Source: an uncultured Candidatus Saccharibacteria bacterium (GTDB lineage Bacteria; Patescibacteriota; Minisyncoccia; Phycocordibacterales; DSPV01). Taken from it: a stretch of 64,000 nt of DNA. This document shows, piece by piece, positions 13,714-28,211 of this stretch. Below the pieces are notes generated by a model. That model ran no database searches, was not told the DNA's origin, and saw only the letters and a list, made by a program, of their open reading frames with translations. A program made the translations under genes and the position numbers. The stretch's first letter is position 1. Each line of letters begins with the position of its first letter. The stretch is taken from positions 138,338 through 202,337 of the forward strand of contig CAZTXT010000001.1 in assembly GCA_964617735.1 (NCBI GenBank), read 5' to 3'.

Positions 13714-14230
13714 ACCTGCGTCCGACTCCCAAGAGATATTTACGCGGATTCTCGTCGAGGTCTTGGAAATGATCGGCGGCTTCGATGAGTTTCGCCGAGG
13801 TTGATTTGCCGAATGATACAACTTCCACCTGACAGCCCTGATTCTCCTGAAGGTATTTAACCAAAGGCACGAAATCTCCGTCGCCCGAAATGACGACGAC
13901 GGCGTCGAGTTTAGGTGCGAGCTTTATCGCATCCACCGCGAGCCCGACGTCCCAGTCGGCTTTTTTAGCGCCGCCCGCAAAGACTTGCAGGTCTTTCGTT
14001 TTAGTCTCGATCCCCACTTTCTCCAGTGCCTCGAAAAACCCTTTTTCTTCTCCGCTTTCTGTCGAAATGACATAGGCGACGGCGCGTATGAGATTGCGTC
14101 CCTCAAGCGCGTCTTTGACGACTTGACCAAAGTTAACGCGCGCATGATAGAGGTTTTTTGCGCTGTGGTAGAGATTTTGCGTGTCGATAAAAATGCCCAC
14201 CCGCTGTTCTTTATGTTTGATTACGCTCAT
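13712..14230 (-). CDS. NYN/LabA-like (PIN-related) domain protein
   Basis: N-terminal VGIFIDTQNLYHSAKN and later VVVISGDGDFVPLV are typical of the NYN (DUF88/LabA) fold. 172 aa. Confidence 0.7.
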   Translation of the reverse strand: MSVIKHKEQRVGIFIDTQNLYHSAKNLYHARVNFGQVVKDALEGRNLIRAVAYVISTESGEEKGFFEALEKVGIETKTKDLQVFAGGAKKADWDVGLAVDAIKLAPKLDAVVVISGDGDFVPLVKYLQENQGCQVEVVSFGKSTSAKLIEAADHFQDLDENPRKYLLGVGRR

Positions 14231-14329
14231 GAAAATAAATTTACTTGCTTAATAATACCGTGTTTCTTTAGCAAAACAAAGCTCGCTTTTTAGGAAGCTC
14301 AATCGAGGATCAAATAAGGAGAATGTCTA

Positions 14330-14599
14330 TTACTTCTTCTTCAGTTCAAGTTTGCGGACGATCGTGCCATAGCGGCGCGGATTTTTCTTTTGCAGATACT
14401 GCAAGTGCTTCTGGCGGTTTGCCACCATCGCGAGCAATCCCCTACGAGAGTGCTTGTCCTTGTTGTGTTTCTTAAGGTGAGCCGCGAGCTCTTCGATGCG
14501 TTTTGTCAAAAGAGAAACCTGCACCTCGGGAGAGCCCGTATCCTTATCATGAATGCCGGATTCTTTGATGATTCGCTGTTTCTTGGTCTTTGAAATCAT
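14330..14599 (-). CDS. rpsO: 30S ribosomal protein S15
   Basis: 89 aa. GSPEVQVSLLTKRIEELAAHLKKHNKDKHSRRGLL matches the S15 signature. Confidence 0.9.
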   Translation of the reverse strand: MISKTKKQRIIKESGIHDKDTGSPEVQVSLLTKRIEELAAHLKKHNKDKHSRRGLLAMVANRQKHLQYLQKKNPRRYGTIVRKLELKKK

Positions 14600-14665
14600 G
14601 GTGCATACAGAATAGCACGAAAGCCTGTATTATGCAAGACCTTTTTCAGCATTTTTAGGCAACCC

Positions 14666-15685
14666 ATGTACAGTGGGTGCAGGATACTTTTTGCGATTTG
14701 CTGGTTGCGGTGTCCCTATGCCTGTCGTGTCGCACAATGTTACCATAGCGCTATGGCAAGCGATATCGAGAAGCTCAAACGCCAATTTCTCGAGTATATC
14801 GAGATAGAAAAAGGCCGCGCGTTAAAGACTGTCGAGAATTACGACCGGTATCTCTCTCGTTTCATCGAGTATTCAAAGATAAAAAAGCCTAGCGGTATCA
14901 CTGAAGCTTCAGTGCGCGATTTTCGTCTCTGGCTTAATCGCCAACCCACTCACAACAAGTGGGTCAAGGGCGAAACCTTGAAGAAAAAGACCCAGAATTA
15001 TTATCTGATCGCGCTGCGCGCGTTTCTGAAATTCCTTTCCAAGCGCGGCATCAGCGCGATATCTCCAGAACATATCGAACTTGCGAAAGCTGGTGAGCGC
15101 TCACTTGACTTGATAACAGCCGAAGAACTTGCACGGCTCCTGAACGCTCCGAAGGATGCCGATCTCAAATCACTTCGGGACAAGGCCATTCTCGAGCTTC
15201 TCTTCTCGACCGGCCTGCGCGTATCGGAGCTTTGTTCCCTCACCCGTGACCTCGACCTTTCTGCCGATGAATTCTCGGTACGAGGCAAGGGAGAGAAAGT
15301 GCGAGTGGTATTCCTTTCGTCTCAGGCGAAAGCTGCGCTCAAGCGCTACCTCGCGGCGCGGACCGACGTCGATGATGCACTGTTCGTGAAAGTGAGTTGG
15401 GAGAGGAAGGGTAGAACCAAGGATTTTGCTCTGACCCCTCGCTCTGTAGAGCGTATTGTAAAATATCATGCTAATAAGGCGGGCATCTCGAAAAAAGTCA
15501 CCCCGCATGTCATACGCCATTGTTTCGCGACCGATCTTCTCTCCAACGGCGCGGACCTGCGGTCGGTCCAGGCACTTTTAGGCCATGCCAATATCGGTAC
15601 CACGCAGATCTATACCCACGTAACGGATAAGCATTTACACGAGGTCCACAAAGCCTTTCACGGTCGTGTCAGGAAAAAGGCTTGA
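14666..15685 (+). CDS. xerC: tyrosine site-specific recombinase XerC/XerD family. Probable true start at the ATG at 14753 (MASDIEKLK...).
   Basis: C-terminal catalytic motifs HVIRHCFATDLL and LLGHANIGTTQIYTHV (R-H-R-Y family). N-terminal SAM-like core-binding domain. Confidence 0.85.
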   Translation: MYSGCRILFAICWLRCPYACRVAQCYHSAMASDIEKLKRQFLEYIEIEKGRALKTVENYDRYLSRFIEYSKIKKPSGITEASVRDFRLWLNRQPTHNKWVKGETLKKKTQNYYLIALRAFLKFLSKRGISAISPEHIELAKAGERSLDLITAEELARLLNAPKDADLKSLRDKAILELLFSTGLRVSELCSLTRDLDLSADEFSVRGKGEKVRVVFLSSQAKAALKRYLAARTDVDDALFVKVSWERKGRTKDFALTPRSVERIVKYHANKAGISKKVTPHVIRHCFATDLLSNGADLRSVQALLGHANIGTTQIYTHVTDKHLHEVHKAFHGRVRKKA

Positions 15686-15766
15686 CATATTCCGTATCTG
15701 TACTATAATACTTGTAGGTTTCTCTTAAGACCCGGAACCATCCGGGCGCAACCGTTAGTGTGATCT

Positions 15767-16102
15767 ATGAAAACTAAAACCAGTTCATTGCCGACAATCC
15801 GTATGATGTGGATTGTTCCGAACCCGAACTCACAACTCCCACGGACTGTTACTGAAGCTTCTCTCGAGGAGCTTCATCGTTCATTAGGAGTATTCAAGGC
15901 TTCTCTCTGGATAAGTGGGAAGGCTTCGGGAGGAAAATTCTCCTCCCGGAAATTCCTACCGTATCCTGGCTGCGGTGTTGAAGCCTACAGGGTTTGCTTC
16001 GCTGCAGCGGTGCATGAGAGGGATATCCTCAACATCGTCGAGAAGCACGGTTTTACAAAGTATGTAGAACCTTCCGTTCCTCCACTCCCGGTCGCCGCCT
16101 GA
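15767..16102 (+). CDS. hypothetical protein (111 aa) immediately downstream of the recombinase, followed by a strong terminator
   Basis: ORF with terminator 16118..16155. No recognisable domain. Confidence 0.35.
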   Translation: MKTKTSSLPTIRMMWIVPNPNSQLPRTVTEASLEELHRSLGVFKASLWISGKASGGKFSSRKFLPYPGCGVEAYRVCFAAAVHERDILNIVEKHGFTKYVEPSVPPLPVAA

Positions 16103-16117
16103 AATACGCGCGAAAAA

Positions 16118-16155
16118 GCCCAGTCCGTCAAAGACGGACTGGGCTGATTTTTTTT
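16118..16155 (+). terminator. rho-independent terminator (GCCCAGTCCGTC-aaa-GACGGACTGGGC followed by a T-run)
   Basis: Perfect 12-bp stem followed by 8 T residues. Confidence 0.75.
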
Positions 16156-16181
16156 ATTAAAATCTTTCCGCGTAGTTTGCT

Positions 16182-16967
16182 ATGATAGTGAGCATGAAAC
16201 TTGTCTCATGGAATGTGAATGGAATACGCGCATGCCATCGGAAGGGCTGTTTTAATTGGTTTTTTGAATATCAACCGGATATTTTCTGTCTTCAGGAGAT
16301 CAAATCAGGTATCGATCAGGTGCCAGAAGAGTTGAAAGCTCCTCAAGGATATTTTTCCTACTTTGATAGTCCTAAGGAGAAAAAAGGATATAGCGGTGTC
16401 GCAGTATATTCAAAGACTGAACCTGAAAAGGTTCAATACGGCATCGGTATAAAGGAATTTGACCAAGAAGGTCGTTGCATAGCTTTGAAATTCAAAGATT
16501 TCTGGCTCTACAACGTTTACTTCCCTAACGGCGGCCAGGGACCTCACCGTCTCAAATTCAAGCTAGGATTTTACGACGCATTTCTCAAGCACATCGAGCG
16601 TTTACGCAAAAAAGGTGAAGCAGTGATCTTTTGCGGTGACATCAACACTGCGCATCAAGAAATTGATCTAGCACGGCCGAAAGAAAACGAAAAGAACACC
16701 GGTTTTCTTCCGATCGAACGAGCATGGCTCGATAAAGTCGAGAAGCTTGACTACATTGACACTTTCCGATATTTCTTTCCTGACAAGAAAGGAGTGTATA
16801 CCTATTGGGACCAGAAGACCTTCGCGAGAGAGAGAAATGTAGGATGGCGCCTCGATTATTTCTTTATCACTCCTGATTTACAGGCGCAGCTTAAATCAGC
16901 TCACATTTTTGAAGTGGTTCTCGGTTCAGACCATTGTCCGATAGGGATTGAACTTAGGGATCTATAA
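16182..16967 (+). CDS. xth: exodeoxyribonuclease III (AP endonuclease, EEP family)
   Basis: MKLVSWNVNGIRA, CLQEIK, and the DHCPIGIEL C-terminus. 261 aa. The likely start is the internal MKLVSW at 16194. Confidence 0.9.
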   Translation: MIVSMKLVSWNVNGIRACHRKGCFNWFFEYQPDIFCLQEIKSGIDQVPEELKAPQGYFSYFDSPKEKKGYSGVAVYSKTEPEKVQYGIGIKEFDQEGRCIALKFKDFWLYNVYFPNGGQGPHRLKFKLGFYDAFLKHIERLRKKGEAVIFCGDINTAHQEIDLARPKENEKNTGFLPIERAWLDKVEKLDYIDTFRYFFPDKKGVYTYWDQKTFARERNVGWRLDYFFITPDLQAQLKSAHIFEVVLGSDHCPIGIELRDL

Positions 16968-17212
16968 AGGACATTTATCCACAGAATGTCCTTTACATGT
17001 CCTTTATGAGTCTTATAATGCTAGTCAGGAGTTGACGCAATTCGCTCTCGAAATGCATAAATACTCAAACTGTTCTTTTACAAGAGAGAAGTCACTATCT
17101 CTTTTGCGAAAGATTTGTTCAGAAAGGTGAATACTTTGGGTGTACATATCTCACCCATTCATTTCGGGTATGTGCCCGAGTTTCACATGAAATTTCTGAA
17201 CGGTTCTTTCAT

Positions 17213-17257
17213 ACCGCTCAGAAAGATTTTCCCACTCCTCTTCTGAGCGGTTTTTTT
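17213..17257 (+). terminator. rho-independent terminator (CCGCTCAGAA ... TTCTGAGCGG followed by TTTTTTT) ending a roughly 290-nt AT-rich region downstream of xth
   Basis: 10-bp stem plus a 7-T run on the plus strand. It overlaps the stop codon of the convergent cca gene. Confidence 0.55.
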
Positions 17258-18770
17258 ATTTCACCCAGTATCGATCTCGTATTTTCTTTAGGTTTTTCTC
17301 TTCGGCAGCTTCTTTTTTTGCTTTACCGATGTTGCCGAGATTTTCTAATTTTTTATCGCTCAAAGATGCTAATTCTTTAACCCGGCTTTCAAGCTTCTCG
17401 GCTGTATTGAGCGCCGGATTTTCCATTACATCTTCCAACAAGACGTGCAAAATATGGCCCACCTTAGGTCCCGGTTCGATTTTTGCGATTTCCATTACCT
17501 TCGCCCCGTTGATTTTAAGCATACTTACCGTTATCGGATCATGCATCACCTCTTCCACCATAGACTTGTATTTTCGTAGTCTATACGGATGCTCTTTAGG
17601 CCTTCCTGTTCCAATTCTGTCACAGACGCGCACGTTCATAAGGTCCCATATATTTTCCTTTCCAACGTTCCTCAAAAGTCTGCGGACCGAAGAGAGGGTT
17701 ATCTGATCGGTGTCCGAGAAAAACATATGCCATCGAACCAATGTAACGACTTTTTCAATGGTTTTCACGGGAAACATAAGCTTCGAGAGGATTTTGGCCG
17801 TCATTTTGCTTCCCATGACGTCATGGCCGTGGAAAGTCCAATCTTTTTTTTCCTCTGACCATTTTCGAGCTGGTACTTTCCCTATATCGTGGAAAAGGGC
17901 AGCTAGCCTTACTTCGAGTGACCAGCCATTTTTCGCGGCATGTTGAAGGGTACGAAGTAAATGTTCCCAAACGTCATATGCGTGAGCTTTATTCTGTTTT
18001 ATACCGATAGTTTCAGTAAGTTCAGGGAGAAATATTGTAAGTAAGCCATATTCTTTCAGAAGGATGATTCCATTCATTGGTTGATCGGACATAAGAATCC
18101 GGGCGAATTCGTCCCGTACTCTTTCACGTGAAACTCCTGAAAGATGTTTTGCATTCCTCTTTATTGCTTCTGATGTCTCTTTTTCTATTGAGAAATCAAG
18201 TTCTGTGGAAAGTCTTATTGCTCTCATTATCCTCAAAGCGTCTTCCTTAAATCGCTCATCTGGGTCGCCAACAGCTCGGATAATGCGCATCCGGATGTCG
18301 TCCTGTCCTTTATAAAGGTCAACTATGTGTCCTTTATACCTAGAATGTCCTTTATGCTCGGCGAGCTTTACTGCTATGGCATTTATGGTGAAATCCCTTC
18401 GCTTAAGATCGTCTTCAATGTTGTTGCTGAACGATACCGAGTCGGGGTGTCGCTGATTTGAATATTTTGATTCAAGCCGATATGGGGTTACCTCAACTGT
18501 TTTAGTTGTCTCATCTTCGCTCTCTTCATTGACTACGCCGACTGTTCCATACTCATTTTCATAGAAGGTTTTTGGGAAAATAGATAGTATCTTCTCTGGC
18601 GTTGCGCTTGTCGTTATGTCCCAATCCTTCGGTTTTTTACCGATAAGCATATCCCGGGTGCACCCGCCGATGAGATAGGCCTCAAAACCCTGTTCTTCAA
18701 GGGTTTTAGCGATCTTCGCGACCGCCTCGGGTATGGTGAATAGCTTCTCTTTCATAGTCCCAGTTGGCAA
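17256..18770 (-). CDS. cca: CCA-adding enzyme / tRNA nucleotidyltransferase with a C-terminal HD domain. Probable ATG start at 18755 (MKEKLF...), because the track start is a TTG.
   Basis: FEAYLIGGCTRDMLIG...DWDITT PolyA_pol head domain. HD motif LAALFHDIGK in the C-terminal half. Confidence 0.85.
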   Translation of the reverse strand: MPTGTMKEKLFTIPEAVAKIAKTLEEQGFEAYLIGGCTRDMLIGKKPKDWDITTSATPEKILSIFPKTFYENEYGTVGVVNEESEDETTKTVEVTPYRLESKYSNQRHPDSVSFSNNIEDDLKRRDFTINAIAVKLAEHKGHSRYKGHIVDLYKGQDDIRMRIIRAVGDPDERFKEDALRIMRAIRLSTELDFSIEKETSEAIKRNAKHLSGVSRERVRDEFARILMSDQPMNGIILLKEYGLLTIFLPELTETIGIKQNKAHAYDVWEHLLRTLQHAAKNGWSLEVRLAALFHDIGKVPARKWSEEKKDWTFHGHDVMGSKMTAKILSKLMFPVKTIEKVVTLVRWHMFFSDTDQITLSSVRRLLRNVGKENIWDLMNVRVCDRIGTGRPKEHPYRLRKYKSMVEEVMHDPITVSMLKINGAKVMEIAKIEPGPKVGHILHVLLEDVMENPALNTAEKLESRVKELASLSDKKLENLGNIGKAKKEAAEEKNLKKIRDRYWVK

Positions 18771-18784
18771 AATTTTAGTATATC

Positions 18785-18813
18785 TTTGGCAATTTAGCTA
18801 ATTTTAGCTATGA
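18785..18813 (+). promoter_or_regulatory. promoter candidate for tRNA-Arg (TTGGCA - 17 nt - TATGAT)
   Basis: Hexamers read directly. The -10 ends about 8 nt before the tRNA 5' end. Confidence 0.35.
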
Positions 18814-18821
18814 TTTTTTGA

Positions 18822-18896
18822 TGCTCCCGTGGTGAAATGGATATCACAACAGTCTTCGGAACTGTTGTTCCAGGTTCGAGTCCTGGCGGGAGCACC
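18822..18896 (+). tRNA. tRNA-Arg (anticodon TCG), CCA encoded
   Basis: Manual cloverleaf: acceptor GCTCCCG/CGGGAGC, D-stem GTGA/TCAC, anticodon stem ACAGT/ACTGT with loop CTTCGGA, T-arm CCAGG-TTCGAGT-CCTGG, 3' ACCA. Confidence 0.8.
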
Positions 18897-18947
18897 AGAT
18901 TGGACTTTGCGATGCTCAAAGTAAAGAGAGGATTTCTTTCCTTTGTT

Positions 18948-18975
18948 TTGCAAAGTTATGTTTTGTCCCTATAAT
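18948..18975 (+). promoter_or_regulatory. near-consensus sigma70 promoter for tRNA-Gly (TTGCAA - 16 nt - TATAAT)
   Basis: Hexamers read directly. The -10 ends 19 nt upstream of the tRNA 5' end. Confidence 0.5.
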
Positions 18976-18994
18976 TACAGGGCGATTCGTGAGA

Positions 18995-19065
18995 GCGGGT
19001 ATCGTTTAGTGGTAGGACGGTTCCTTGCCAAGGAACAGGTGGGAGTTCGATTCTCCCTACCCGCA
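18995..19065 (+). tRNA. tRNA-Gly (anticodon GCC)
   Basis: Acceptor GCGGGTA/TACCCGC, anticodon stem GTTCC/GGAAC with loop TTGCCAA, T-arm GGGAG-TTCGATT-CTCCC. No encoded CCA. Confidence 0.8.
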
Positions 19066-19181
19066 TAGGTGTCCTTTAGCTTCAAGAGATCGTTTTGTGC
19101 TTATTTTTAGGGATACATTGAGATCATGTGGATAAGTTTGTGGATATGTGTATAAAGGACAAGAACGATGTCTTTTAGCTT

Positions 19182-19625
19182 GTGGAAATGGATCGGAATA
19201 GTCCGAGACGGGGAGTGTTTCTAAGTAACCTGATTCACGTGGAAAATATCAACCACATCGACGTTGGTAAAAAAGGAGAAGAGATCGCCTGCCGATATCT
19301 CAAGAGCAAAGGGCATCACATTGTCGAACGAAACTTTCGTAAAAAATTCGGAGAGATAGATATCGTCAGTCGAAAAGGAAATAAGGTTTATATTTGTGAA
19401 GTCAAAACATTCGCGTATGATGGTCGAAATGGCGCGGGATCGCATCGGCCGGAAGACAATGTGACGCCATGGAAGTTGAAAAAACTTTCGCGGGTCGTTC
19501 AGATTTATCTGGTAAAAAAGTTCGGTACAGAATTTCCTGAATGGGAATTTTTAGTCGCTTCGGTGGTGTTGGATATGGAAAGGAGGATCGCGAGAATAAA
19601 GATCATCGCTGACGTGCTGGCATAA
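19182..19625 (+). CDS. yraN: YraN/UPF0102 family putative endonuclease. The track start is GTG; the true start is probably further downstream.
   Basis: GEEIACRYLKSKGHHIVERNFR...GEIDIVSRKGNKVYICEVKT matches the YraN (Holliday-junction-resolvase-like) signature. Confidence 0.7.
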   Translation: MEMDRNSPRRGVFLSNLIHVENINHIDVGKKGEEIACRYLKSKGHHIVERNFRKKFGEIDIVSRKGNKVYICEVKTFAYDGRNGAGSHRPEDNVTPWKLKKLSRVVQIYLVKKFGTEFPEWEFLVASVVLDMERRIARIKIIADVLA

Positions 19626-19668
19626 GCTGCACGCAGCGAGGACTATCGATGAGGAGGATTTGTTGCAA

Positions 19669-19739
19669 CGGGCTGTAGTATAGCGGTAGTATATGTGCTT
19701 TGGGAGCATAAGGTCCGGGTTCGACTCCCGGCAGCCCGA
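19669..19739 (+). tRNA. tRNA-Pro (anticodon TGG)
   Basis: Acceptor CGGGCTG/CAGCCCG, D-stem GTAT/GTAT with G-U pairs, anticodon stem TGTGC/GCATA with loop TTTGGGA (G37 typical of Pro), T-arm CCGGG-TTCGACT-CCCGG. Confidence 0.75.
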
Positions 19740-19842
19740 GCGTTAGAGAGGGATGAGCGAGCAATGGGAGTTGCTCGCAACGGGAGGCGAAGCCCGATTG
19801 AGTTCCGCCGAAGGTGGACCAATCAGGGTACTGAACCGGTAC

Positions 19843-19865
19843 GGTTCGACTCCCGGTAGCCCAAG
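19843..19865 (+). repeat. direct repeat of the tRNA-Pro 3' end (21/23 nt identical to 19718..19740), att-core-like
   Basis: GGTTCGACTCCCGG[C/T]AGCCC[G/A]AG occurs twice, 125 nt apart. The second copy has no complete cloverleaf around it. Confidence 0.45.
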
Positions 19866-20309
19866 AGGCGCAGTGAGCGATTTTTAGCGAAAGAGATCGT
19901 CACCAAAATTCTAAGATTTCTGCAACGTAGTGTTGCTGCCACGGTGAGCGCTAGGCACGAATGGAGAGAAAAATATTTTGTGTTGTTTACGCGGCATGGA
20001 ACGTGGGAGGATGTCAGTGTTGCAACCACTCGTGCACTAGAAAAGTTTAGGGGAGAATCGGGCAAATACTGACTGCGCGTATCGGAGCACTCGCCCCTAT
20101 ACGCTGGTTTCGTTTCTGGAGGGCAGGTCAAAGGGTGTTGGGTAATACTGAAGAGATAATCGTGGGGATTTAGAGAAGAAACCATAGCTCATGCAAGTAC
20201 CGTGCCTATAGAGAACGATTCTTATTTGAGTGAACACCTTCTGTCGACCTTAGAACCTTCCGTAGACCTTAAAAAAGAGTAGTATGGTAGCAATCAAATC
20301 AAAAAACGT

Positions 20310-20918
20310 ATGAGACCGGAACGGGCACTTCGTCAGCTTAATGAGTTGAGAACATTGGGAAATACTATGCGTCTCGCCGCGGATGGCTGGAAAGAGCCAT
20401 GGCAGACGCTTATCGCCATTATCATGTCTGCGCGAACGCGCGACGAAGTGACTATTGCAGTGAGCGAGAGGCTTTTTAAGCGATATCCGACCGTGGAGCG
20501 GCTTGCGCGCGCGAGTCGGGGAGTGATCGAGAAGATCATCCGGCCGGTGAACTTCTACCGCAACAAAGCGAAATCGGTCCTCAACTGTGCGCGATCGCTT
20601 GTCACAAATCATCACGGGCGACCACCTGAGACCGTCGAAGAGCTTGTTTTGCTTCCCGGTGTGGGCCGTAAAACAGCGAATGTTTTTTTGACGGCGAGAG
20701 GGTATGATGCAATCGGAGTCGACACGCACGTTGCATACATTTCCCGAGAGCTTGGTTGGACGAAAAATCGCGATCCACACAAGATCGAAAAAGATCTTGA
20801 AGCGCTGTTTCCTCAACATATCTGGAAAGATGTGAACACGACTTGTGTGCAGTTCGGCAAAACGCATTTGAGTAGGAAAAAGAAAAAAGCGTTGTTGATG
20901 CGTATCCGTTCCCTTTAA
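20310..20918 (+). CDS. nth: endonuclease III-like HhH-GPD DNA glycosylase
   Basis: LIAIIMSARTRDEV (helix before the HhH), LPGVGRKTANVFL, and catalytic Asp in GVDTHV. 202 aa. Confidence 0.85.
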   Translation: MRPERALRQLNELRTLGNTMRLAADGWKEPWQTLIAIIMSARTRDEVTIAVSERLFKRYPTVERLARASRGVIEKIIRPVNFYRNKAKSVLNCARSLVTNHHGRPPETVEELVLLPGVGRKTANVFLTARGYDAIGVDTHVAYISRELGWTKNRDPHKIEKDLEALFPQHIWKDVNTTCVQFGKTHLSRKKKKALLMRIRSL

Positions 20919-20926
20919 ATCATCGC

Positions 20927-21754
20927 ATGCAGTTATCTACTGATACAGTTCAAAAGTTTCAGGATACGATCGCGGCGCACTATCGATTGCGCGGGCGGGT
21001 TTTTCCGTGGAGGAACACGCGCGACCCATATCACATTTTGGTTTCCGAAATCATGTTACAGCAAACTCAAGCGGATCGCGTCGTTCCGTTCTTTGAGCGA
21101 TTCATAAAACTTTTTCCTACGGTGGCCTCGCTGGCCAAAGCGAAACCGCGCACACTCCTGCGCGCGTGGCAAGGACTTGGTTATAATCGCCGCGCGCTCT
21201 ATCTCAAGCGCGCGGCTGAAGCGATACGCACAGAATTCTCTTCCATAGTTCCCCGCACAGTGCACGAATTAGAATCTCTGCCGGGGGTGGGGAAGTACAC
21301 CGCCGCTGCAGTCATGGCATTCGCGTACAGTGCGCCGGTCGCATTTATCGAAACGAATATCCGCAGCGTCTATCTCCATTTCTTTTTTAAAAATAAAAGA
21401 TCGGTCAGTGATCGTGCTATTCTCTCGCTCGTCGAGCAAACGCTTGACCGGAAGAATCCCGGCGTCTGGTATCAAGCGCTCATGGATTATGGCGCTCTTC
21501 TTAAAAAAGAGAGCGGCAATCCGAACCAAAGAAGCAAGCACTACGTCAAACAGGGCGTATTCAAGGGTTCTCGACGTCATGTACGCGGGCGCATCATCTC
21601 GTCTGCGCTCGCCGGTCCCTTGACGGCGCTTGAGATGCGGAAGTTACGAGCAGAGCATGCATTTTCTTCGACTCAAGTGGAGCAGGCGATCGCAGACCTT
21701 GTCGCCGAAGGATTTCTGCGGCGCAAAGGCGCTTCATTCGTCCTCTCCGAATGA
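20927..21754 (+). CDS. A/G-specific adenine glycosylase-like (MutY-like) HhH-GPD protein
   Basis: ILVSEIMLQQTQADRV and LPGVGKYTAAAVMAFAY HhH-GPD motifs. 275 aa. The 4Fe-4S cysteine cluster is not obvious. Confidence 0.75.
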   Translation: MQLSTDTVQKFQDTIAAHYRLRGRVFPWRNTRDPYHILVSEIMLQQTQADRVVPFFERFIKLFPTVASLAKAKPRTLLRAWQGLGYNRRALYLKRAAEAIRTEFSSIVPRTVHELESLPGVGKYTAAAVMAFAYSAPVAFIETNIRSVYLHFFFKNKRSVSDRAILSLVEQTLDRKNPGVWYQALMDYGALLKKESGNPNQRSKHYVKQGVFKGSRRHVRGRIISSALAGPLTALEMRKLRAEHAFSSTQVEQAIADLVAEGFLRRKGASFVLSE

Positions 21755-22035
21755 GCCGTCGATTCAAAAAAACTGTCGAACAATTCTCTTGCGAGCATTG
21801 CGGCGCGTTGGTGGAAGGGAATGGATTCACCAATCACTGCCCAATGTGCCTCTACAGCAAGCACAGCGATATCTTCCCCGGTGATCGGGCAAATCCGTGC
21901 GGGGGATTGATGGAGCCGATCAGCCTTGCGCTTAAACGCGACGCATATATCATTACCCATCGCTGTATGAAATGCGGGCAGGAGAAGAGGAATCGTGCAA
22001 GCGAGACCGACCATATTGAGATTTTGCTTCGCTGA
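21751..22035 (+). CDS. RNHCP domain zinc-ribbon protein
   Basis: CEHCGA...FTNHCPMC...CMKCGQ. Start overlaps the upstream stop (ATGA). Confidence 0.6.
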   Translation: MSRRFKKTVEQFSCEHCGALVEGNGFTNHCPMCLYSKHSDIFPGDRANPCGGLMEPISLALKRDAYIITHRCMKCGQEKRNRASETDHIEILLR

Positions 22036-22061
22036 TTTTCTTCAGGTATAGTAGCGGGGTT

Positions 22062-22132
22062 GCGGGTGTGGTTTAGTGGTAGGACGACTGCCTTCCAAGC
22101 AGTAGGCGCGAGTTCGATTCTCGCCACCCGCA
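22062..22132 (+). tRNA. tRNA-Gly (anticodon TCC)
   Basis: Acceptor GCGGGTG/CACCCGC, anticodon stem ACTGC/GCAGT with loop CTTCCAA, T-arm GCGAG-TTCGATT-CTCGC. Confidence 0.8.
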
Positions 22133-22812: not shown

Positions 22813-23085
22813 TTATTTAACCGCGTCTTTGAGGGCCTTAGCCGCGCGGAACTTCGGCACTTTCATCGCCGGTACCGAGATGGTCTCGCCGGTTCGCGGA
22901 TTGCGCGCCTGTCGGGCCGCGCGTGCCTTGACCGAAAAGATACCCAAGCCCGCGATCGATACCTCGTCACCCTTCTTTAGGGTGCTGACAACAGAATCGA
23001 TCACTGCATCAACCGCCTGTTCAGCCTGCACTTTTGTGCCGCCGATCTTCGCATGGACTGCCTCTGCAATTCCTTGCTTGTTCAT
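22813..23085 (-). CDS. hup: HU family DNA-binding protein (true start at MNKQGIAEAV; the track ORF is 5'-extended)
   Basis: MNKQGIAEAV...GDEVSIAGLGIFSVKARAARQARNPRTGETI is the canonical HU/IHF fold signature. 90 aa. Confidence 0.85.
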   Translation of the reverse strand: MNKQGIAEAVHAKIGGTKVQAEQAVDAVIDSVVSTLKKGDEVSIAGLGIFSVKARAARQARNPRTGETISVPAMKVPKFRAAKALKDAVK

Positions 23086-23363
23086 GGTTGTCTTGTTGAT
23101 ATTAAGCTCGTCGACCCTCAAATGCGTGGATTTCGCGTGAAAACCATCGCCTTGTTTCGGAAACAATTATATAACAGGCCATTTTTTAGGCAACACGATC
23201 AACCGAAGCCTCAAATACAGAAACAATCCCGCTCTTCTGTCAATTTTTTCGACCTTCAGGCGATCGTCGCGCGGTTTTTGTGTGGATTATGTCGCAGAAA
23301 TTAGCGTTCGGTCATGGTATAGTGGTTTTAAGAATCATTTTCATAGAAGATTTCATTCGTTTC

Positions 23364-26300
23364 ATGCATCAGATTCCCCGTGTGGTTCGCCTCGTGCTTC
23401 TAACGCTTTTCCTTGCAAGCGGGATTTTAGGTCTTTTCTCTGTAGCACATGCGGATTGTACCCCTACCTATGACAACTATCTATCCTATGCCCCTCCGCC
23501 GTTTCTACCTCGGCCAATGGCAGCTGGCGTATTCAATGAAACCCTTCGCAATTACAATATGGGCGTTGATGGGTATAGCCGCTACCCCGCTTCCTCATTT
23601 CCCTTGGGGCTATTCGACAGCGCCTTAATAGTAGATTCAAGCGGAAGTTTGGGGTACACCTACGTAGATGGTTTTGGAGTGAGCAATGCCAAATACCGAA
23701 GCACCTGCGGCAGCACCAGCATCAGCATTTCTATTCCTGGCTTCCCCAATACCGTCATTGCAGGCGGGCCGACTATCGTTAACGGCTATTCGACGATTTC
23801 GCAATACATAGACAACAATTTCCGTGATACAGGATCTGACATACAATCACACGCGGGTCTAAATTCCCTCTATGCGATTCCGCAGAACTTCCATTTTTCT
23901 GATGATCCGGTGGTCCAGAATCGCTATGTAGACGGCATCATAGACTATATCCAAGCTAACCATTCTTTTCCGGTAGATATTTCATTTACCCCGGATCCTG
24001 ATTCGACGCCGCCGGAAAGCTATCGCTATACCCGCCATGTCGACGTTCCCGCAACGCTTTGCCCGCATACAGCCCTCATCGCGGTCGGAGGTATTTTCTC
24101 GAAAACAACAGACCCTTTTTTCTCGTTCATGCGTAGTATTTGTCCTGACTCAACCATAAGCATCGCGGGTAATGAGAGCGTTCCGAAGATAACCAAGCGT
24201 ATCAAGGAAGCGATAAACGCTCAGCTTCAGGCAGGAAAAGGCGTCTTGGTGGTTGCACACTCAAAAGGTGCCGTCATCGCCTACAATATTCAGAGCTATG
24301 TCTCGGGAAGAGATGTGAGCTTCATATATATCGATCCGCCCTATGCGAATTTTTGGAGCGGTTTGCCGTTTGCATCAAAGTTCAGTAGTACTGGCGCGGC
24401 AATTAAACTTGCAGCTGAAAGTGGTATTGCCACGGACCTACGCACGATAAATTGGACAAATGGCGCGGGTAGCGGTAAGTCCCATGATCCGTGGTCGTAT
24501 CCCGGGTATGGAAATAACGCGCTGCATCTTAAGGATTTGCGTCGAAAGATAATCCTTACGATCGCAGCAGGGGGCTGTACTGATGCAATCTGTTCTCTTA
24601 CCCCTGGAGCCGCAGTGCCTCCGCTCGATGCGCCTCCTACCATCAATTCGATATCGGCGACGCCGGTTATGCCGGGAGATACCATTACCATCGGGGGATC
24701 GGGTTTCAGCACGACTACGAACGGTTTCTTTATTGAAAATGTCGCTGATCCAAGTATTCACTATGACATTCTCTCCTATCAAATGCCGAGTCCCGGGGTA
24801 GTCACTTTTCAAGTTCCTTTTGCCCCTGAATTTCCTTCCGACACCGTTTTCGGAATGTATCGGGTGAAAGTCAACGCGGCGAACAGTGAATTTTCCAATG
24901 AACTGCAGTTCCCCATAGGATCGCTCACCTCGGCTTCGCCGTCCTTGACCTCGGCTTCGCCGAACTGGGCAGCCCCTGGCTCCTCCTTCTCGCTTTTAGG
25001 GTCGGGTTTTGTGTTGCTCAATAACTCCGTAAAGCTCACCAATGCCGCGCTTGGCGATGATTTTGTTGTCTCCAACATTCCAAGCGACAGCACTCAAACG
25101 CGAATAACCGTTACACTTCCGCCCACCATCCCGCGGGGAACCTACAGTCTTCAGGCCCGCTATCCCTATGCAGACTGGTCTACCGCCCTCTCCTTCACTA
25201 TCGCGAGCACCGCACCGCCCTTGATCAATGCGCTCACTCCGCCGACCGCCGCTCCCGGCGGTAGCGTGGAGCTTGAGGGCCGCAACCTCAAGGCAGGAAC
25301 TGTGGTCACTCTTTCTCATACCGGTTCCTCATCGGTGTTGCTTACCGGAAGCTCGTATAGCGGCGGTAAATACTATGAGATCACTTTGCCGACCACGCTC
25401 ACTCCCGGAGTCTATCAAGTCACTGCGAGCACCAGTGGGGGAGGCACGAGCAATACGCTCAATCTAACCGTCGTTGGCCTTCCGACCCTATCAGTCTCCG
25501 CCGTACCGCTCTTCGTCGCGGGCGGAGACATTTCCACCATTTCGTGGAGCTCCTTCAACGCCGACTCATGCCAAGTGTCCATCAATGGCAACGTCGGAGC
25601 GGTACCCCTCTCCGGCACCGCCACGATCAATCCCTACAGCACGGTCACCCTAACCTTCGCCTGCACCGGTATCGGCGGAACGACAACCCGAAGCGTCACC
25701 ATCACGGTTGTACCTCCGCCGACTATTACGCTCACCGCAAATCCGCTCTCGGTCGCACCGGGCGGGAGCTCCAAGCTCACCTGGAATGCTACTGACGCTA
25801 CTAGCTGCACTATGGCTGCAACCGGAGGCGTCACGGGAGGCTATCCGACCGGCTCTGTCTCTTCGTCCGGCTCGGATACCACCGGCGCCCTCTCGAGCAA
25901 TGCAACCTTCACTCTCTCCTGCTCTGGTATCGGAGGCAAAACCAGTGGCTCTCTCACCATCCTCGTCAGCAATAACCCCTCTCCCGTACCCACGGCACCC
26001 ACCGTTCTCTCACCCAACGGCGGCGAGATATGGGTCAAGGGAGCCACCCAGACCATTCGCTGGAGCACGTCCGGCACAGTAACCGACCTCTATCTTCTGC
26101 AGGGCACGACGACCTACCCTATCGCGACTACGCTAGCCGGCAGTGCCTACTCATGGCTTGTGGGCACCGCGCAGAGCGCCTCCGTTGACAAGGGGTATTA
26201 CAGCATCAAGGCCTGTCAGAGTGGCACGACCCTCTGTGATGTCAGTGACGCACCCTTCGCGATGCGCTCGCCGTCGCCGTTTTCAATCGGGAATCGGGTG

Positions 26301-26615
26301 CAGACGATCGATGACGTATCCATTCTCGCCGATCCCGGAGGTGCAGTGCTGGGCGCCCAACCACTCGGCTCCGCTGGCACCGTCATCGACGGCCCCGTCG
26401 CCATCTATGGACAGCCCAACTACCTCAAGATTGATTTCGATACCGGCATTGATGGCTGGATACCAGAAACGTTTCTGGCAAAGTCCTTGAGCACGGGATT
26501 TCATATCCAGAAAACCCGGGCGATCACCACCCGACGATCAGTATCCGGATGGTATCTGGCCGCAGTCGCACAAGCAGTGCGGTTTCTGGCGCAGCGCTTG
26601 CCTCTCGGGCAGTAG
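23364..26615 (+). CDS. large secreted surface protein (1084 aa). N-terminal alpha/beta-hydrolase (lipase-like) domain with nucleophile elbow VVAHSKGAV, then about 5 Ig-like/IPT repeats and a C-terminal SH3b-like module.
   Basis: Signal peptide MHQIPRVVRLVLLTLFLASGILGLFSVAHA. AHSKG matches the A-H-S-x-G variant of GxSxG seen in Bacillus LipA-type lipases. Repeated PPT/PT-linked beta-rich segments (PTLSVSAVPL..., PTITLTANPL..., PTVLSPNGGEIW...). 5'-extended track start at 23280. Confidence 0.7.
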   Translation: MHQIPRVVRLVLLTLFLASGILGLFSVAHADCTPTYDNYLSYAPPPFLPRPMAAGVFNETLRNYNMGVDGYSRYPASSFPLGLFDSALIVDSSGSLGYTYVDGFGVSNAKYRSTCGSTSISISIPGFPNTVIAGGPTIVNGYSTISQYIDNNFRDTGSDIQSHAGLNSLYAIPQNFHFSDDPVVQNRYVDGIIDYIQANHSFPVDISFTPDPDSTPPESYRYTRHVDVPATLCPHTALIAVGGIFSKTTDPFFSFMRSICPDSTISIAGNESVPKITKRIKEAINAQLQAGKGVLVVAHSKGAVIAYNIQSYVSGRDVSFIYIDPPYANFWSGLPFASKFSSTGAAIKLAAESGIATDLRTINWTNGAGSGKSHDPWSYPGYGNNALHLKDLRRKIILTIAAGGCTDAICSLTPGAAVPPLDAPPTINSISATPVMPGDTITIGGSGFSTTTNGFFIENVADPSIHYDILSYQMPSPGVVTFQVPFAPEFPSDTVFGMYRVKVNAANSEFSNELQFPIGSLTSASPSLTSASPNWAAPGSSFSLLGSGFVLLNNSVKLTNAALGDDFVVSNIPSDSTQTRITVTLPPTIPRGTYSLQARYPYADWSTALSFTIASTAPPLINALTPPTAAPGGSVELEGRNLKAGTVVTLSHTGSSSVLLTGSSYSGGKYYEITLPTTLTPGVYQVTASTSGGGTSNTLNLTVVGLPTLSVSAVPLFVAGGDISTISWSSFNADSCQVSINGNVGAVPLSGTATINPYSTVTLTFACTGIGGTTTRSVTITVVPPPTITLTANPLSVAPGGSSKLTWNATDATSCTMAATGGVTGGYPTGSVSSSGSDTTGALSSNATFTLSCSGIGGKTSGSLTILVSNNPSPVPTAPTVLSPNGGEIWVKGATQTIRWSTSGTVTDLYLLQGTTTYPIATTLAGSAYSWLVGTAQSASVDKGYYSIKACQSGTTLCDVSDAPFAMRSPSPFSIGNRVQTIDDVSILADPGGAVLGAQPLGSAGTVIDGPVAIYGQPNYLKIDFDTGIDGWIPETFLAKSLSTGFHIQKTRAITTRRSVSGWYLAAVAQAVRFLAQRLPLGQ

Positions 26616-26681
26616 GGTCGATTTTTCCAATTTAAAACTCCTGCTTACAAGCAGGAGTTTTAAATTTAGATGGTGAGAATG

Positions 26682-28211
26682 TTAGCGGGCGAATTCAATC
26701 GAGCGCGTTTCGCGTATAACGGTCACTTTGATCTCTCCCGGGTAGTGCAGTTCGTTTTCGATGCGCAGTGCGACATCGCGCGCAAGCTTGCTGGCTTCGA
26801 GGTCGCCTACTTCGGTGGGCGTTACGAATATCCTGATCTCGCGTCCCGCCTGCAGTGCATACGCTTTTTCAACGCCGGTGAACGATTTCGCGATGGCTTC
26901 AAGTTCCTCAAGGCGCTTGAGATAATTCTCGACGCTGTCGCGCCGCGCGCCGGGCCGCGCGCCAGAGATCGCGTCCGCGGTCTGCACGATCATGGATTCG
27001 AGCGTTTCATAAGGATACTCTTCATGATGCGCCTGCATGGCTTTCACGACCTCTTCGGATACTCCGAATTTCTGAAGGATGCGCCGCCCAATCTCGACAT
27101 GCGTTCCTTGAACCTCGTGGTCGACCGCCTTTCCGATATCATGCAAGAGTGCTCCCGCCCGCGCGACGGAGATGTTCGCGCCCAGCTCTTCCGCGATCAT
27201 GCCGGCGATGTGCGCCATTTCGACGGAGTGTTGTAGTACGTTCTGGCCGTAACTGGTGCGGAAATGCAAGCGACCCAAGATAGATATCAATCTGGGGTCG
27301 AGATTGATGACCCCCGCCTCGTATGCGGCCTGCTGGCCTTTTTCCTTGATGATCTTATTGATCTCCGTTTCGGCTTTTTCAACCGCCTTTTCTATCTTCG
27401 CGGGCTGGATGCGACCGTCCATGATGAGCTCCTCGAGCGCCACCCGCGCGACTTGGCGACGGATCGGATTGAACGACGAGATCGTGATGGCGCCCGGCGT
27501 ATCATCGACGATGAGCTCTACGCCGGTGATCCGCTCGAACGCTTTGATATTGCGACCTTCTTTGCCGATGATCTTTCCTTTGAGCTCGTCGGATGGGATA
27601 GCGACTGTTGTCGTGAGCACATCAGCGGAGACGGCGTTGCCGAGGCGCTGGATGGCGCTCGTCAGTATTTCTTTCGCGCGTCCCTCGAGCTTTTCTTCGC
27701 CGTACCGTTCCAGTTTTTGCATGCGCATCACGAGATCTTCCTCGCCTTGCTTCTCCATGGTTTTGATGAGCTCCTGCTTCGCGTCATTTTGGCTCAATCC
27801 CGCGACGCGCTCCATCTCAGCGATCTTCTGCGCTTCCATAGAATCGACGCGCTCTTTTATCTTCTTGATCTCCGCGACTTTCCCTTTGACTTCCTCGACT
27901 TCCTTGTCGATATCGAGCTGGCGTTTATCGAGCAATTCCTCTTTCTTTATCAAACGATCCTCCGTTTTCTTGAGTTTATCCTCCTTCTCTTTCATTTCCG
28001 ACCGCGACTCCTTCAGCGTTTCTTCCGCTCGTTTTTGCGCGTCTTCGACGACCCGCTTGGATTCTTCTTTCGCTTCCAGCATCATCTGCTTGATCTCGAG
28101 CTCCATAGAGCCTTTCTTTCCCAAAGAGATGATGAGCCGCAGGTAATAACCCAGCGCGACACCTGCAAGGGTGCCGAGCCCCGTAAGGAGCAGTACTAAT
28201 TTTAATGACAT
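26682..28211 (-). CDS. rny: ribonuclease Y
   Basis: N-terminal TM, long coiled coil, KH domain (GKIIGKEGRNIKAFE), HD domain (LLHDIGKAVDHE). 509 aa. Confidence 0.9.
   Translation of the reverse strand: MSLKLVLLLTGLGTLAGVALGYYLRLIISLGKKGSMELEIKQMMLEAKEESKRVVEDAQKRAEETLKESRSEMKEKEDKLKKTEDRLIKKEELLDKRQLDIDKEVEEVKGKVAEIKKIKERVDSMEAQKIAEMERVAGLSQNDAKQELIKTMEKQGEEDLVMRMQKLERYGEEKLEGRAKEILTSAIQRLGNAVSADVLTTTVAIPSDELKGKIIGKEGRNIKAFERITGVELIVDDTPGAITISSFNPIRRQVARVALEELIMDGRIQPAKIEKAVEKAETEINKIIKEKGQQAAYEAGVINLDPRLISILGRLHFRTSYGQNVLQHSVEMAHIAGMIAEELGANISVARAGALLHDIGKAVDHEVQGTHVEIGRRILQKFGVSEEVVKAMQAHHEEYPYETLESMIVQTADAISGARPGARRDSVENYLKRLEELEAIAKSFTGVEKAYALQAGREIRIFVTPTEVGDLEASKLARDVALRIENELHYPGEIKVTVIRETRSIEFAR

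Follow-up and report, generated by a model that had tools for sequence, protein, structure and literature searches.

Several kinds of small serine hydrolase have been described that resemble the protein examined here in part. The minimal enzymes without a lid, namely XCC1541 (2qjw), the YdeN/RBBP9-type 'Ser_hydrolase' proteins (3bdv, 1uxo) and YqiA (9bi7), are cytoplasmic and single-domain and carry the acid after β7. Bacillus subtilis LipA is small and secreted, with an A-H-S-x-G elbow and a Gly-rich turn behind its first strand, and the cutinases possess a G-Y-S-Q-G motif, their Asp and His sharing a loop that follows the last strand. In the arrangement known as 'group B', the catalytic acid is located at the C-terminus of β6 and is frequently followed by Pro or Gly (PMC7034887). 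Here, we analyzed an open reading frame (ORF) in a stretch of 64,000 nucleotides, below called the window, from contig CAZTXT010000001.1 of an uncultured Candidatus Saccharibacteria bacterium (assembly GCA_964617735.1). The ORF encodes a surface protein of 1083 residues in which a compact module of the α/β-hydrolase fold precedes six β-sandwich domains, an SH3b-like domain and a short tail. This module is very probably a member of the α/β-hydrolase superfamily, and on sequence it fits none of the curated families of these enzymes. An initial annotation, made from the letters alone, had described a lipase-type serine hydrolase joined to Ig/IPT repeats and an SH3b-like C-terminus, plausibly acting on a host membrane or cell wall; as an observation it is confirmed as a whole, and its interpretation is supported in part.

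The nonapeptide VVAHSKGAV, on which the hydrolase assignment had been based, is indeed present at residues 296–304 and includes Ser300, in A-H-S-K-G-A. The other landmarks of the module are Asp324 in D-P-P-Y, I-N-W-T-x-G at residues 362–367 and His374 in H-D-P-W. In addition, Cys233 and Cys405 are situated at opposite ends of the module, and end-proximal cysteines recur in most of its copies. The bare [AGS]xSxG pattern occurs five times in the whole Ser/Gly-rich protein where about 3.9 occurrences are expected, and because this frequency is not above chance, the AHSKG motif alone is not evidence for a hydrolase. What gives it weight is its invariance in each of the six copies that include this site, together with its position on a predicted strand-turn-helix.

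These copies were collected in several searches. When 1.84 billion representative proteins were scanned with HMMER, 8316 matched, and the best 150 of these were examined. Nearly all of the 8316 fall on residues ~675–890, which comprise Ig-like repeats, and among the best 150 the motif region was matched only by P0092 and P0106, over residues 236–473. A profile search with three sequences added P0152, a stand-alone secreted protein of 244 residues, and the fragment P0151, and a search with seven sequences returned P0152 alone and no further member. Scanning the GTDB representative genomes yielded a Candidatus Taylorbacteria locus (L002), which encodes P0092, and a Candidatus Nomurabacteria locus (L003), whose protein of 2562 residues contains two copies of the module. 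Altogether, at least seven copies were found in six proteins or fragments. Wherever a placement was possible, it was to Parcubacteria/Paceibacterota; P0106, for instance, carries the annotation of a hypothetical protein from a Candidatus Paceibacterota bacterium. The family probably has more than seven copies and is probably under-sampled, because DNA methyltransferases swamp both scans for the DPPY pattern and Ig repeats dominate the best 150 HMMER matches. Among the matches listed in a metagenome scan, the sole candidates were two DNA methyltransferases that share FIYIDPPY, and these were discarded as false positives.

The other copies share 27–58% identity with the window copy. In the alignment of the seven rows, no more than 13 columns are fully invariant, and these lie within D-P-P-Y, [IV]-[ND]-W-T-x-G and H-x-P-[WF]; the elbow reads [AG]-[HF]-S-x-G-[AS] in every one of the six copies that span it. 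Asp324 is the sole invariant acid, as Glu352 varies and the residue following I-N-W-T is N, D or K. Three features of the relatives may be added. P0152 (L001 5588-6322, assembly GCA_031373235.1) has its own signal peptide and offers the simplest construct for biochemistry; its neighbours are a large family-2 glycosyltransferase, a diacylglycerol kinase and a CAP-domain protein. In the giant secreted protein of L003 (100-7788), a similar stretch of ~200 residues precedes each of the two module copies, and the protein also contains an HExxH-containing segment (VAMHETAHSFAGLEDEY) and C-terminal CARDB-like domains. No Pfam match was obtained for the HExxH region, and by its sequence this protein looks like a multi-enzyme surface protein.

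The fold was modelled with AlphaFold2 (AF2) on residues 231–420 using a five-sequence alignment, in which model residues 70, 94 and 144 correspond to Ser300, Asp324 and His374. The model has a mean predicted local distance difference test score (pLDDT) of 60 and a predicted template-modelling score (pTM) of 0.63; its first 95 residues have a pLDDT of 70–88, and its confident half is arranged as β-α-β-α-β-α-β. Ser300 opens the helix after strand 63–69 (blocks with a pLDDT of 80–88), as in a nucleophile elbow, and Asp324 stands immediately after strand 88–93, the predicted β6. This alternation of strands and helices agrees with the central parallel β-sheet of the α/β-hydrolase fold, a β-α-β core for which the strand order 4-3-5-6-7 is characteristic. 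Foldseek placed lipases and Fph serine hydrolases on top (best E-value 4.8e-4). In the best sequence match from the PDB, the α/β-fold deformylase Nfo, Ser300 aligns with catalytic residue 94 and IDPP falls on β6. Weak family signals point in the same direction: the window protein matches PE-PPE with 17 bits (cutoff 21) and Abhydrolase_6 with 15 bits (cutoff 26.3), five of the six elbow-spanning copies match Abhydrolase_6 below threshold (best E-value 5e-4), and the two-copy protein of L003 barely attains the Pfam cutoff of this family. No NCBIfam match was found for the module. As far as the model goes, the hydrolase-type domain proposed in the initial annotation is upheld: the nucleophile elbow carries a conserved Ser, an invariant His and an invariant Asp accompany it, and no homology of the N-terminal part to a non-enzymatic family was detected.

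Both conservation and the confident part of the model place the predicted nucleophile Ser300 on the elbow. The model likewise puts Asp324, the candidate acid, at the C-terminal end of β6, followed by Pro, which corresponds to the 'group B' placement (position IV / IV+1, PMC7034887), although that class was defined by solved structures and the present assignment comes from a moderate-confidence model together with conservation. His374 is the candidate base, as suggested by its invariance in all seven copies and its place before the last helix. In the proposed mechanism, the Sec signal peptide would be removed at AHA30|D31 and the protein exported to the surface or secreted. The mature protein would then consist, in this order, of the ~200-residue orphan region, the ~175-residue hydrolase module, the stalk of six β-sandwiches, the SH3b-like domain and the short tail. 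Ser300, at the apex of the elbow A-H-S-K-G-A, would attack an ester carbonyl, an amide or thioester being less likely, while His374 in the H-D-P-W loop would act as the base and Asp324 would complete a Ser300-His374-Asp324 triad. Suitably placed behind the first strand, the G-G turn in I-A-V-G-G-I may supply the oxyanion hole. Finally, the SH3b-like domain and the stalk would hold the enzyme at a cell-wall or envelope polymer, either the cell's own or that of a host. Read as one statement of fold and mechanism, an exported serine esterase or lipase module on a stalk, positioned by the SH3b-like domain, is probably the correct description of this protein.

The same residues could also serve a different chemistry. 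With the α/β fold kept, the Ser-His-Asp machinery might transfer acyl groups or cleave amides at the cell surface, so that the module would be an acyltransferase, a peptidase, a thioesterase or an O-acyl esterase of peptidoglycan or teichoic acid. However, the module has no lid, cap or recognisable substrate-binding insertion, and it shows no significant similarity to any specific family; we regard such an activity as unlikely, though with a real chance of being correct. Alternatively, the protein could be an adhesin or structural surface protein whose module is a non-catalytic binding domain or scaffold, with Ser, Asp and His retained for folding or for a ligand. Against this, the invariant residues sit where an active hydrolase would have them, at the C-terminal ends of β5 and β6 and in the His loop. 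Furthermore, pseudo-enzymes usually lose at least one residue of the triad, whereas here the catalytic-type residues are unchanged between copies that are 27–36% identical and also in the stand-alone secreted form. Because they stay invariant at this level of divergence, a non-catalytic role is quite improbable.

Several observations weigh against the esterase or lipase module outlined above. The confidence of the AF2 model is moderate on average, with model residues 96–143 below a pLDDT of 50 and His374 at the edge of this stretch, in a block averaging ~50; a second AF2 model, of residues 31–420, was no better. The template-modelling scores (TM-scores) of the Foldseek matches are low (0.35–0.43), with some non-hydrolase Rossmann-like matches mixed in, and no canonical β8 is predicted ahead of His374. 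Neither Pfam nor NCBIfam contains a curated family that attains its threshold for the module of the window protein. The gene neighbourhoods of four family loci have nothing in common that would hint at a substrate. Lastly, the SH3b-like copy of the window protein gave no SH3_3 match and is divergent, without the consensus Arg and the WW pair.

A comparison with the described enzymes shows where the module stands apart. Its identity to XCC1541, the YdeN/RBBP9-type proteins and YqiA is only 11–16%, and Pfam Ser_hydrolase is weakly matched by just one of the seven copies (E-value 0.27). Unlike these cytoplasmic proteins, the module is predicted to be extracellular and is found within giant surface proteins, its sole invariant acid follows β6, and no β8 is predicted. 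As for the cutinase-like and PE-PPE serine hydrolases, including mycobacteriophage LysB, all their sequence matches to the module are sub-threshold, and the cutinases lack the DPPY and INWTxG motifs of the module.

The initial annotation had likened the elbow to that of LipA-type lipases and PGAP1-like hydrolases. The elbow, small size, secretion and Gly-rich turn noted above for LipA do recur in the module, but its acid lies elsewhere, its C-terminal half is different and the likeness extends over 16 residues only. An hhalign comparison with a manually typed LipA sequence aligned just 16 columns at the elbow, with a probability of 44%. At E≤1, the window protein and all seven copies remained without a match to Pfam Lipase_2 (PF01674) or PGAP1 (PF07819), although for PGAP1 the HMMER filters may hide very weak matches. 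Membership of the Bacillus LipA (Lipase_2) or PGAP1-like families is thus very improbable, and the label should be dropped.

Two further identities were considered and rejected. Weak His_Phos_1 and cobC matches on 'VLVVAHS' suggested a histidine phosphatase, but an RHG motif is lacking and P0152 has Phe in place of His299. The sequence F-I-Y-I-D-P-P-Y is identical to motif IV of N6/N4 amino-methyltransferases, but neither the SAM-binding motif I (SAM, S-adenosylmethionine) nor a Rossmann methyltransferase fold was found; judged from the sequence, this identity is a local coincidence.

Very small genomes and a presumed dependence on other cells characterise Parcubacteria and other bacteria of the Candidate Phyla Radiation, and Parcubacteria are in general believed to be incapable of making lipids of their own. 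To our knowledge, few surface enzymes of Candidate Phyla Radiation bacteria have been characterised, and we found no description of this hydrolase module in the literature. On sequence grounds, the module is a credible new enzyme family. What would be new is the family-level version of a well-known kind of enzyme, set in an architecture typical of Candidate Phyla Radiation surface proteins. A bolder and, in our estimate, doubtful proposal is that the module founds a lineage-restricted, undescribed family of minimal α/β hydrolases, which Parcubacteria would display on long stalks to cut lipids or acyl groups of the host envelope. Such a family would be marked by a length of ~175 residues, the absence of a lid, the D-P-P-Y acid after β6 and the His directly after β7, and its members would occur alone or with other enzyme domains. 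If this were true, it would provide Parcubacteria with a means to harvest lipids.

For practical purposes, a compact catalytic module captured by no curated family is now delimited and the residues to mutate are identified. The stand-alone P0152 would be easy to express, and either P0152 or residues 231–415 of the window protein would make a small candidate enzyme for host interaction. Should it prove to be an active esterase or lipase directed at envelopes, it would be a concrete candidate for attacking or feeding on a host; should it not, it would be one more divergent α/β hydrolase on an adhesin-like stalk. In either case, the domain boundaries are corrected and the LipA/PGAP1 label is removed.

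The N-terminal signal peptide, already recognized in the initial annotation, was read by eye from the sequence and supported by a hydropathy calculation. Its basic n-region is followed by a core of 18 hydrophobic residues with a mean Kyte-Doolittle value of 2.4, and it has no lipobox. The whole protein contains 12 Cys residues, mostly paired inside single domains; this pairing would fit an oxidising, extracytoplasmic location, with the disulfides themselves presumed. Signal peptides on the relatives and the presence of TIG, Ig-like and SH3b-like domains are further extracytoplasmic signs. Taken from sequence features, the protein appears to be exported and either secreted or held at the cell surface, with cleavage predicted at AHA30|D31.

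The choice of the start codon affects this signal peptide. The open frame runs 23280..26615 on the plus strand, with GTG 23280 as one alternative start, and the public gene call for the same protein (P0001) begins at ATG 23289, 25 codons upstream of 23364, giving 1108 residues. No convincing Shine-Dalgarno sequence was found at any candidate start. ATG 23364 seems more likely than the alternatives because it yields a textbook Sec signal peptide. The ORF is real, and the previously given length of 1084 residues corresponds to its 1084 codons, of which the last is the stop.

Between the signal peptide and the module lies an orphan region, so that residues 1–400 do not form the single N-terminal domain that had been assumed, but two unrelated parts, 31–232 and 233–410. 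The boundary is placed near residue 233 because P0092 and P0106 align over 236–473 only, and there the stretch stands mid-protein or near the C-terminus; these are proteins of 1.1–1.5 thousand residues. A word-index homologue search with residues 31–412 gave no match, and the AF2 model of residues 31–420 has a pLDDT of ~25–45 across the orphan region. A likeness of its 'DCTPTYDNY' to the N-terminus of P0092 was supported by neither phmmer nor blastp and was discarded.

The coordinates of all features are collected in Table 1.

Table 1. Features of the surface-protein gene, its product and the adjoining hairpin (window positions).
Feature	Residues	Position	Strand	Details
Surface-protein ORF	1-1083	23364..26615	+	from ATG 23364: 1083 residues plus stop, 1084 codons
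Predicted signal peptide	1-30	23364..23453	+	n-region MHQIPRVVR, h-region LVLLTLFLASGILGLFSV, c-region AHA; predicted cleavage before Asp31
Orphan N-terminal region	31-232	23454..24059	+	no homologue, Pfam or PDB match, or confident structure
Compact α/β-hydrolase-fold module	233-410	24060..24593	+	~175 residues; from conservation and AF2 model
Ser300 codon, predicted nucleophile	300	24261..24263	+	invariant in 6/6 covering copies; first helix residue after strand 63-69
Asp324 codon, candidate catalytic acid at C-terminus of β6	324	24333..24335	+	invariant in 7/7; directly after strand 88-93
His374 codon, candidate catalytic base	374	24483..24485	+	invariant in 7/7; low-confidence loop of model
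Three IPT/TIG-like β-sandwich domains	424-518, 524-614, 617-705	24633..25478	+	
Two Ig-like repeats	706-783, 784-869	25479..25970	+	each with a Cys pair
Kre9_KNH/Big_7-like β-sandwich domain	877-968	25992..26267	+	23.4 bits, cutoff 24.6
SH3b-like domain	969-1042	26268..26489	+	17 homologous copies in 8 proteins
C-terminal tail	1043-1083	26490..26612	+	41 residues; basic stretch and weakly amphipathic helix (SGWYLAAVAQAVRFLAQRL, hydrophobic moment (muH) 0.38)
Hairpin		26633..26663		perfect 13-bp stem, AAAACTCCTGCTT-ACA-AGCAGGAGTTTT, with A and T runs on the flanks; between surface-protein ORF and rny

The stalk agrees with the earlier count of at least five β-rich repeats joined by linkers, since six β-sandwich modules are present: three TIG-like, two Ig-like and one Kre9/Big_7-like. 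The short linkers between them have a high content of Pro, Ser and Thr. Against the Pfam TIG model (PF01833, cutoff 20.9 bits), the first repeat scores 18.3 bits and the second 21.8 bits; the third has no TIG match and was recognised by its sequence pattern and by a homologue in P0046. Homologous copies of the TIG-like domains occur in P0092, P0151, P0106 and P0046. The Ig-like repeat belongs to a very common type, of which the best 150 of the 8316 HMMER matches contain more than 1000 copies, and its profile matches the PDB entry 9ncf_S ('Immunoglobulin-like domain protein') with an E-value of 3.4e-7. Its consensus reads ...SSTLSWSSTNATSC...TYTLTCTG.GGT..., and no Pfam model scores above threshold on it, the matches to PKD, Big_9 and Ig being weak. 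For the last β-sandwich, all 11 homologous copies tested match Kre9_KNH or Big_7.

The C-terminal SH3b-like module of the initial annotation is also supported, through its homologues. Eight of 15 homologues match SH3_3 (PF08239; best E-value 2.4e-5), and the window copy is related to these repeats by phmmer, with E-values down to 4e-17. The profile gives weak matches to the SH3b structures 2kyb, 2kt8 and 2kq8, solved by nuclear magnetic resonance (E-values 0.03–0.13). In combining a catalytic domain with a C-terminal SH3b-like domain, the protein resembles the SH3b-targeted bacterial enzymes of the lysostaphin type. It differs from these in that the catalytic part is an α/β hydrolase and not an M23, amidase or NlpC/P60 domain, in the six β-sandwich domains between the two and in the divergence of the SH3b-like copy.

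The 41-residue tail follows the SH3b-like domain, and no homologue was found for it. From its composition and helix analysis, it may serve in anchoring or sorting. Short amphipathic helices (muH 0.44–0.53) also end the Parcubacteria-type surface proteins P0046, P0155, P0092 and P0055, which look unrelated and have domains in common with the window protein.

The gene environment agrees with the initial annotation. Upstream lies the divergent HU gene (22813..23166, minus strand), corresponding to hup, and downstream the convergent RNase Y gene (rny, 26682..28211, minus strand), with ClpP next after it; the genes around the locus are housekeeping genes. No paralogue of the surface protein was found within the window. 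A source contig of 674,686 bp and the assignment of all placeable relatives to Parcubacteria/Paceibacterota are in keeping with the reduced-genome organism that had been supposed. Judged by its sequence, the hairpin behind the ORF is probably a bidirectional intrinsic terminator; a consensus terminator scan of the window did not include it in its list.

The HU ORF as listed starts at TTG 23166, yet its Pfam match begins only at residue 28, and therefore the true HU start is probably an ATG near 23085. With this start, the HU and surface-protein genes would have an intergenic region of ~280 bp (23086-23363) in common, in which a promoter-like site, TTGCCT-16-TATAAT, occurs on the minus strand at 23193-23166. 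The region immediately upstream of the locus contains a pair of neighbouring HhH-GPD glycosylase genes (20310-20918 and 20927-21754) as well as a gene encoding an RNHCP domain, and four transfer RNA genes lie within 18823-22132 (at 18823, 18995, 19669 and 22062). The G+C content, 0.51–0.57 over most of the window, falls to 0.43–0.49 at 14001-20000.

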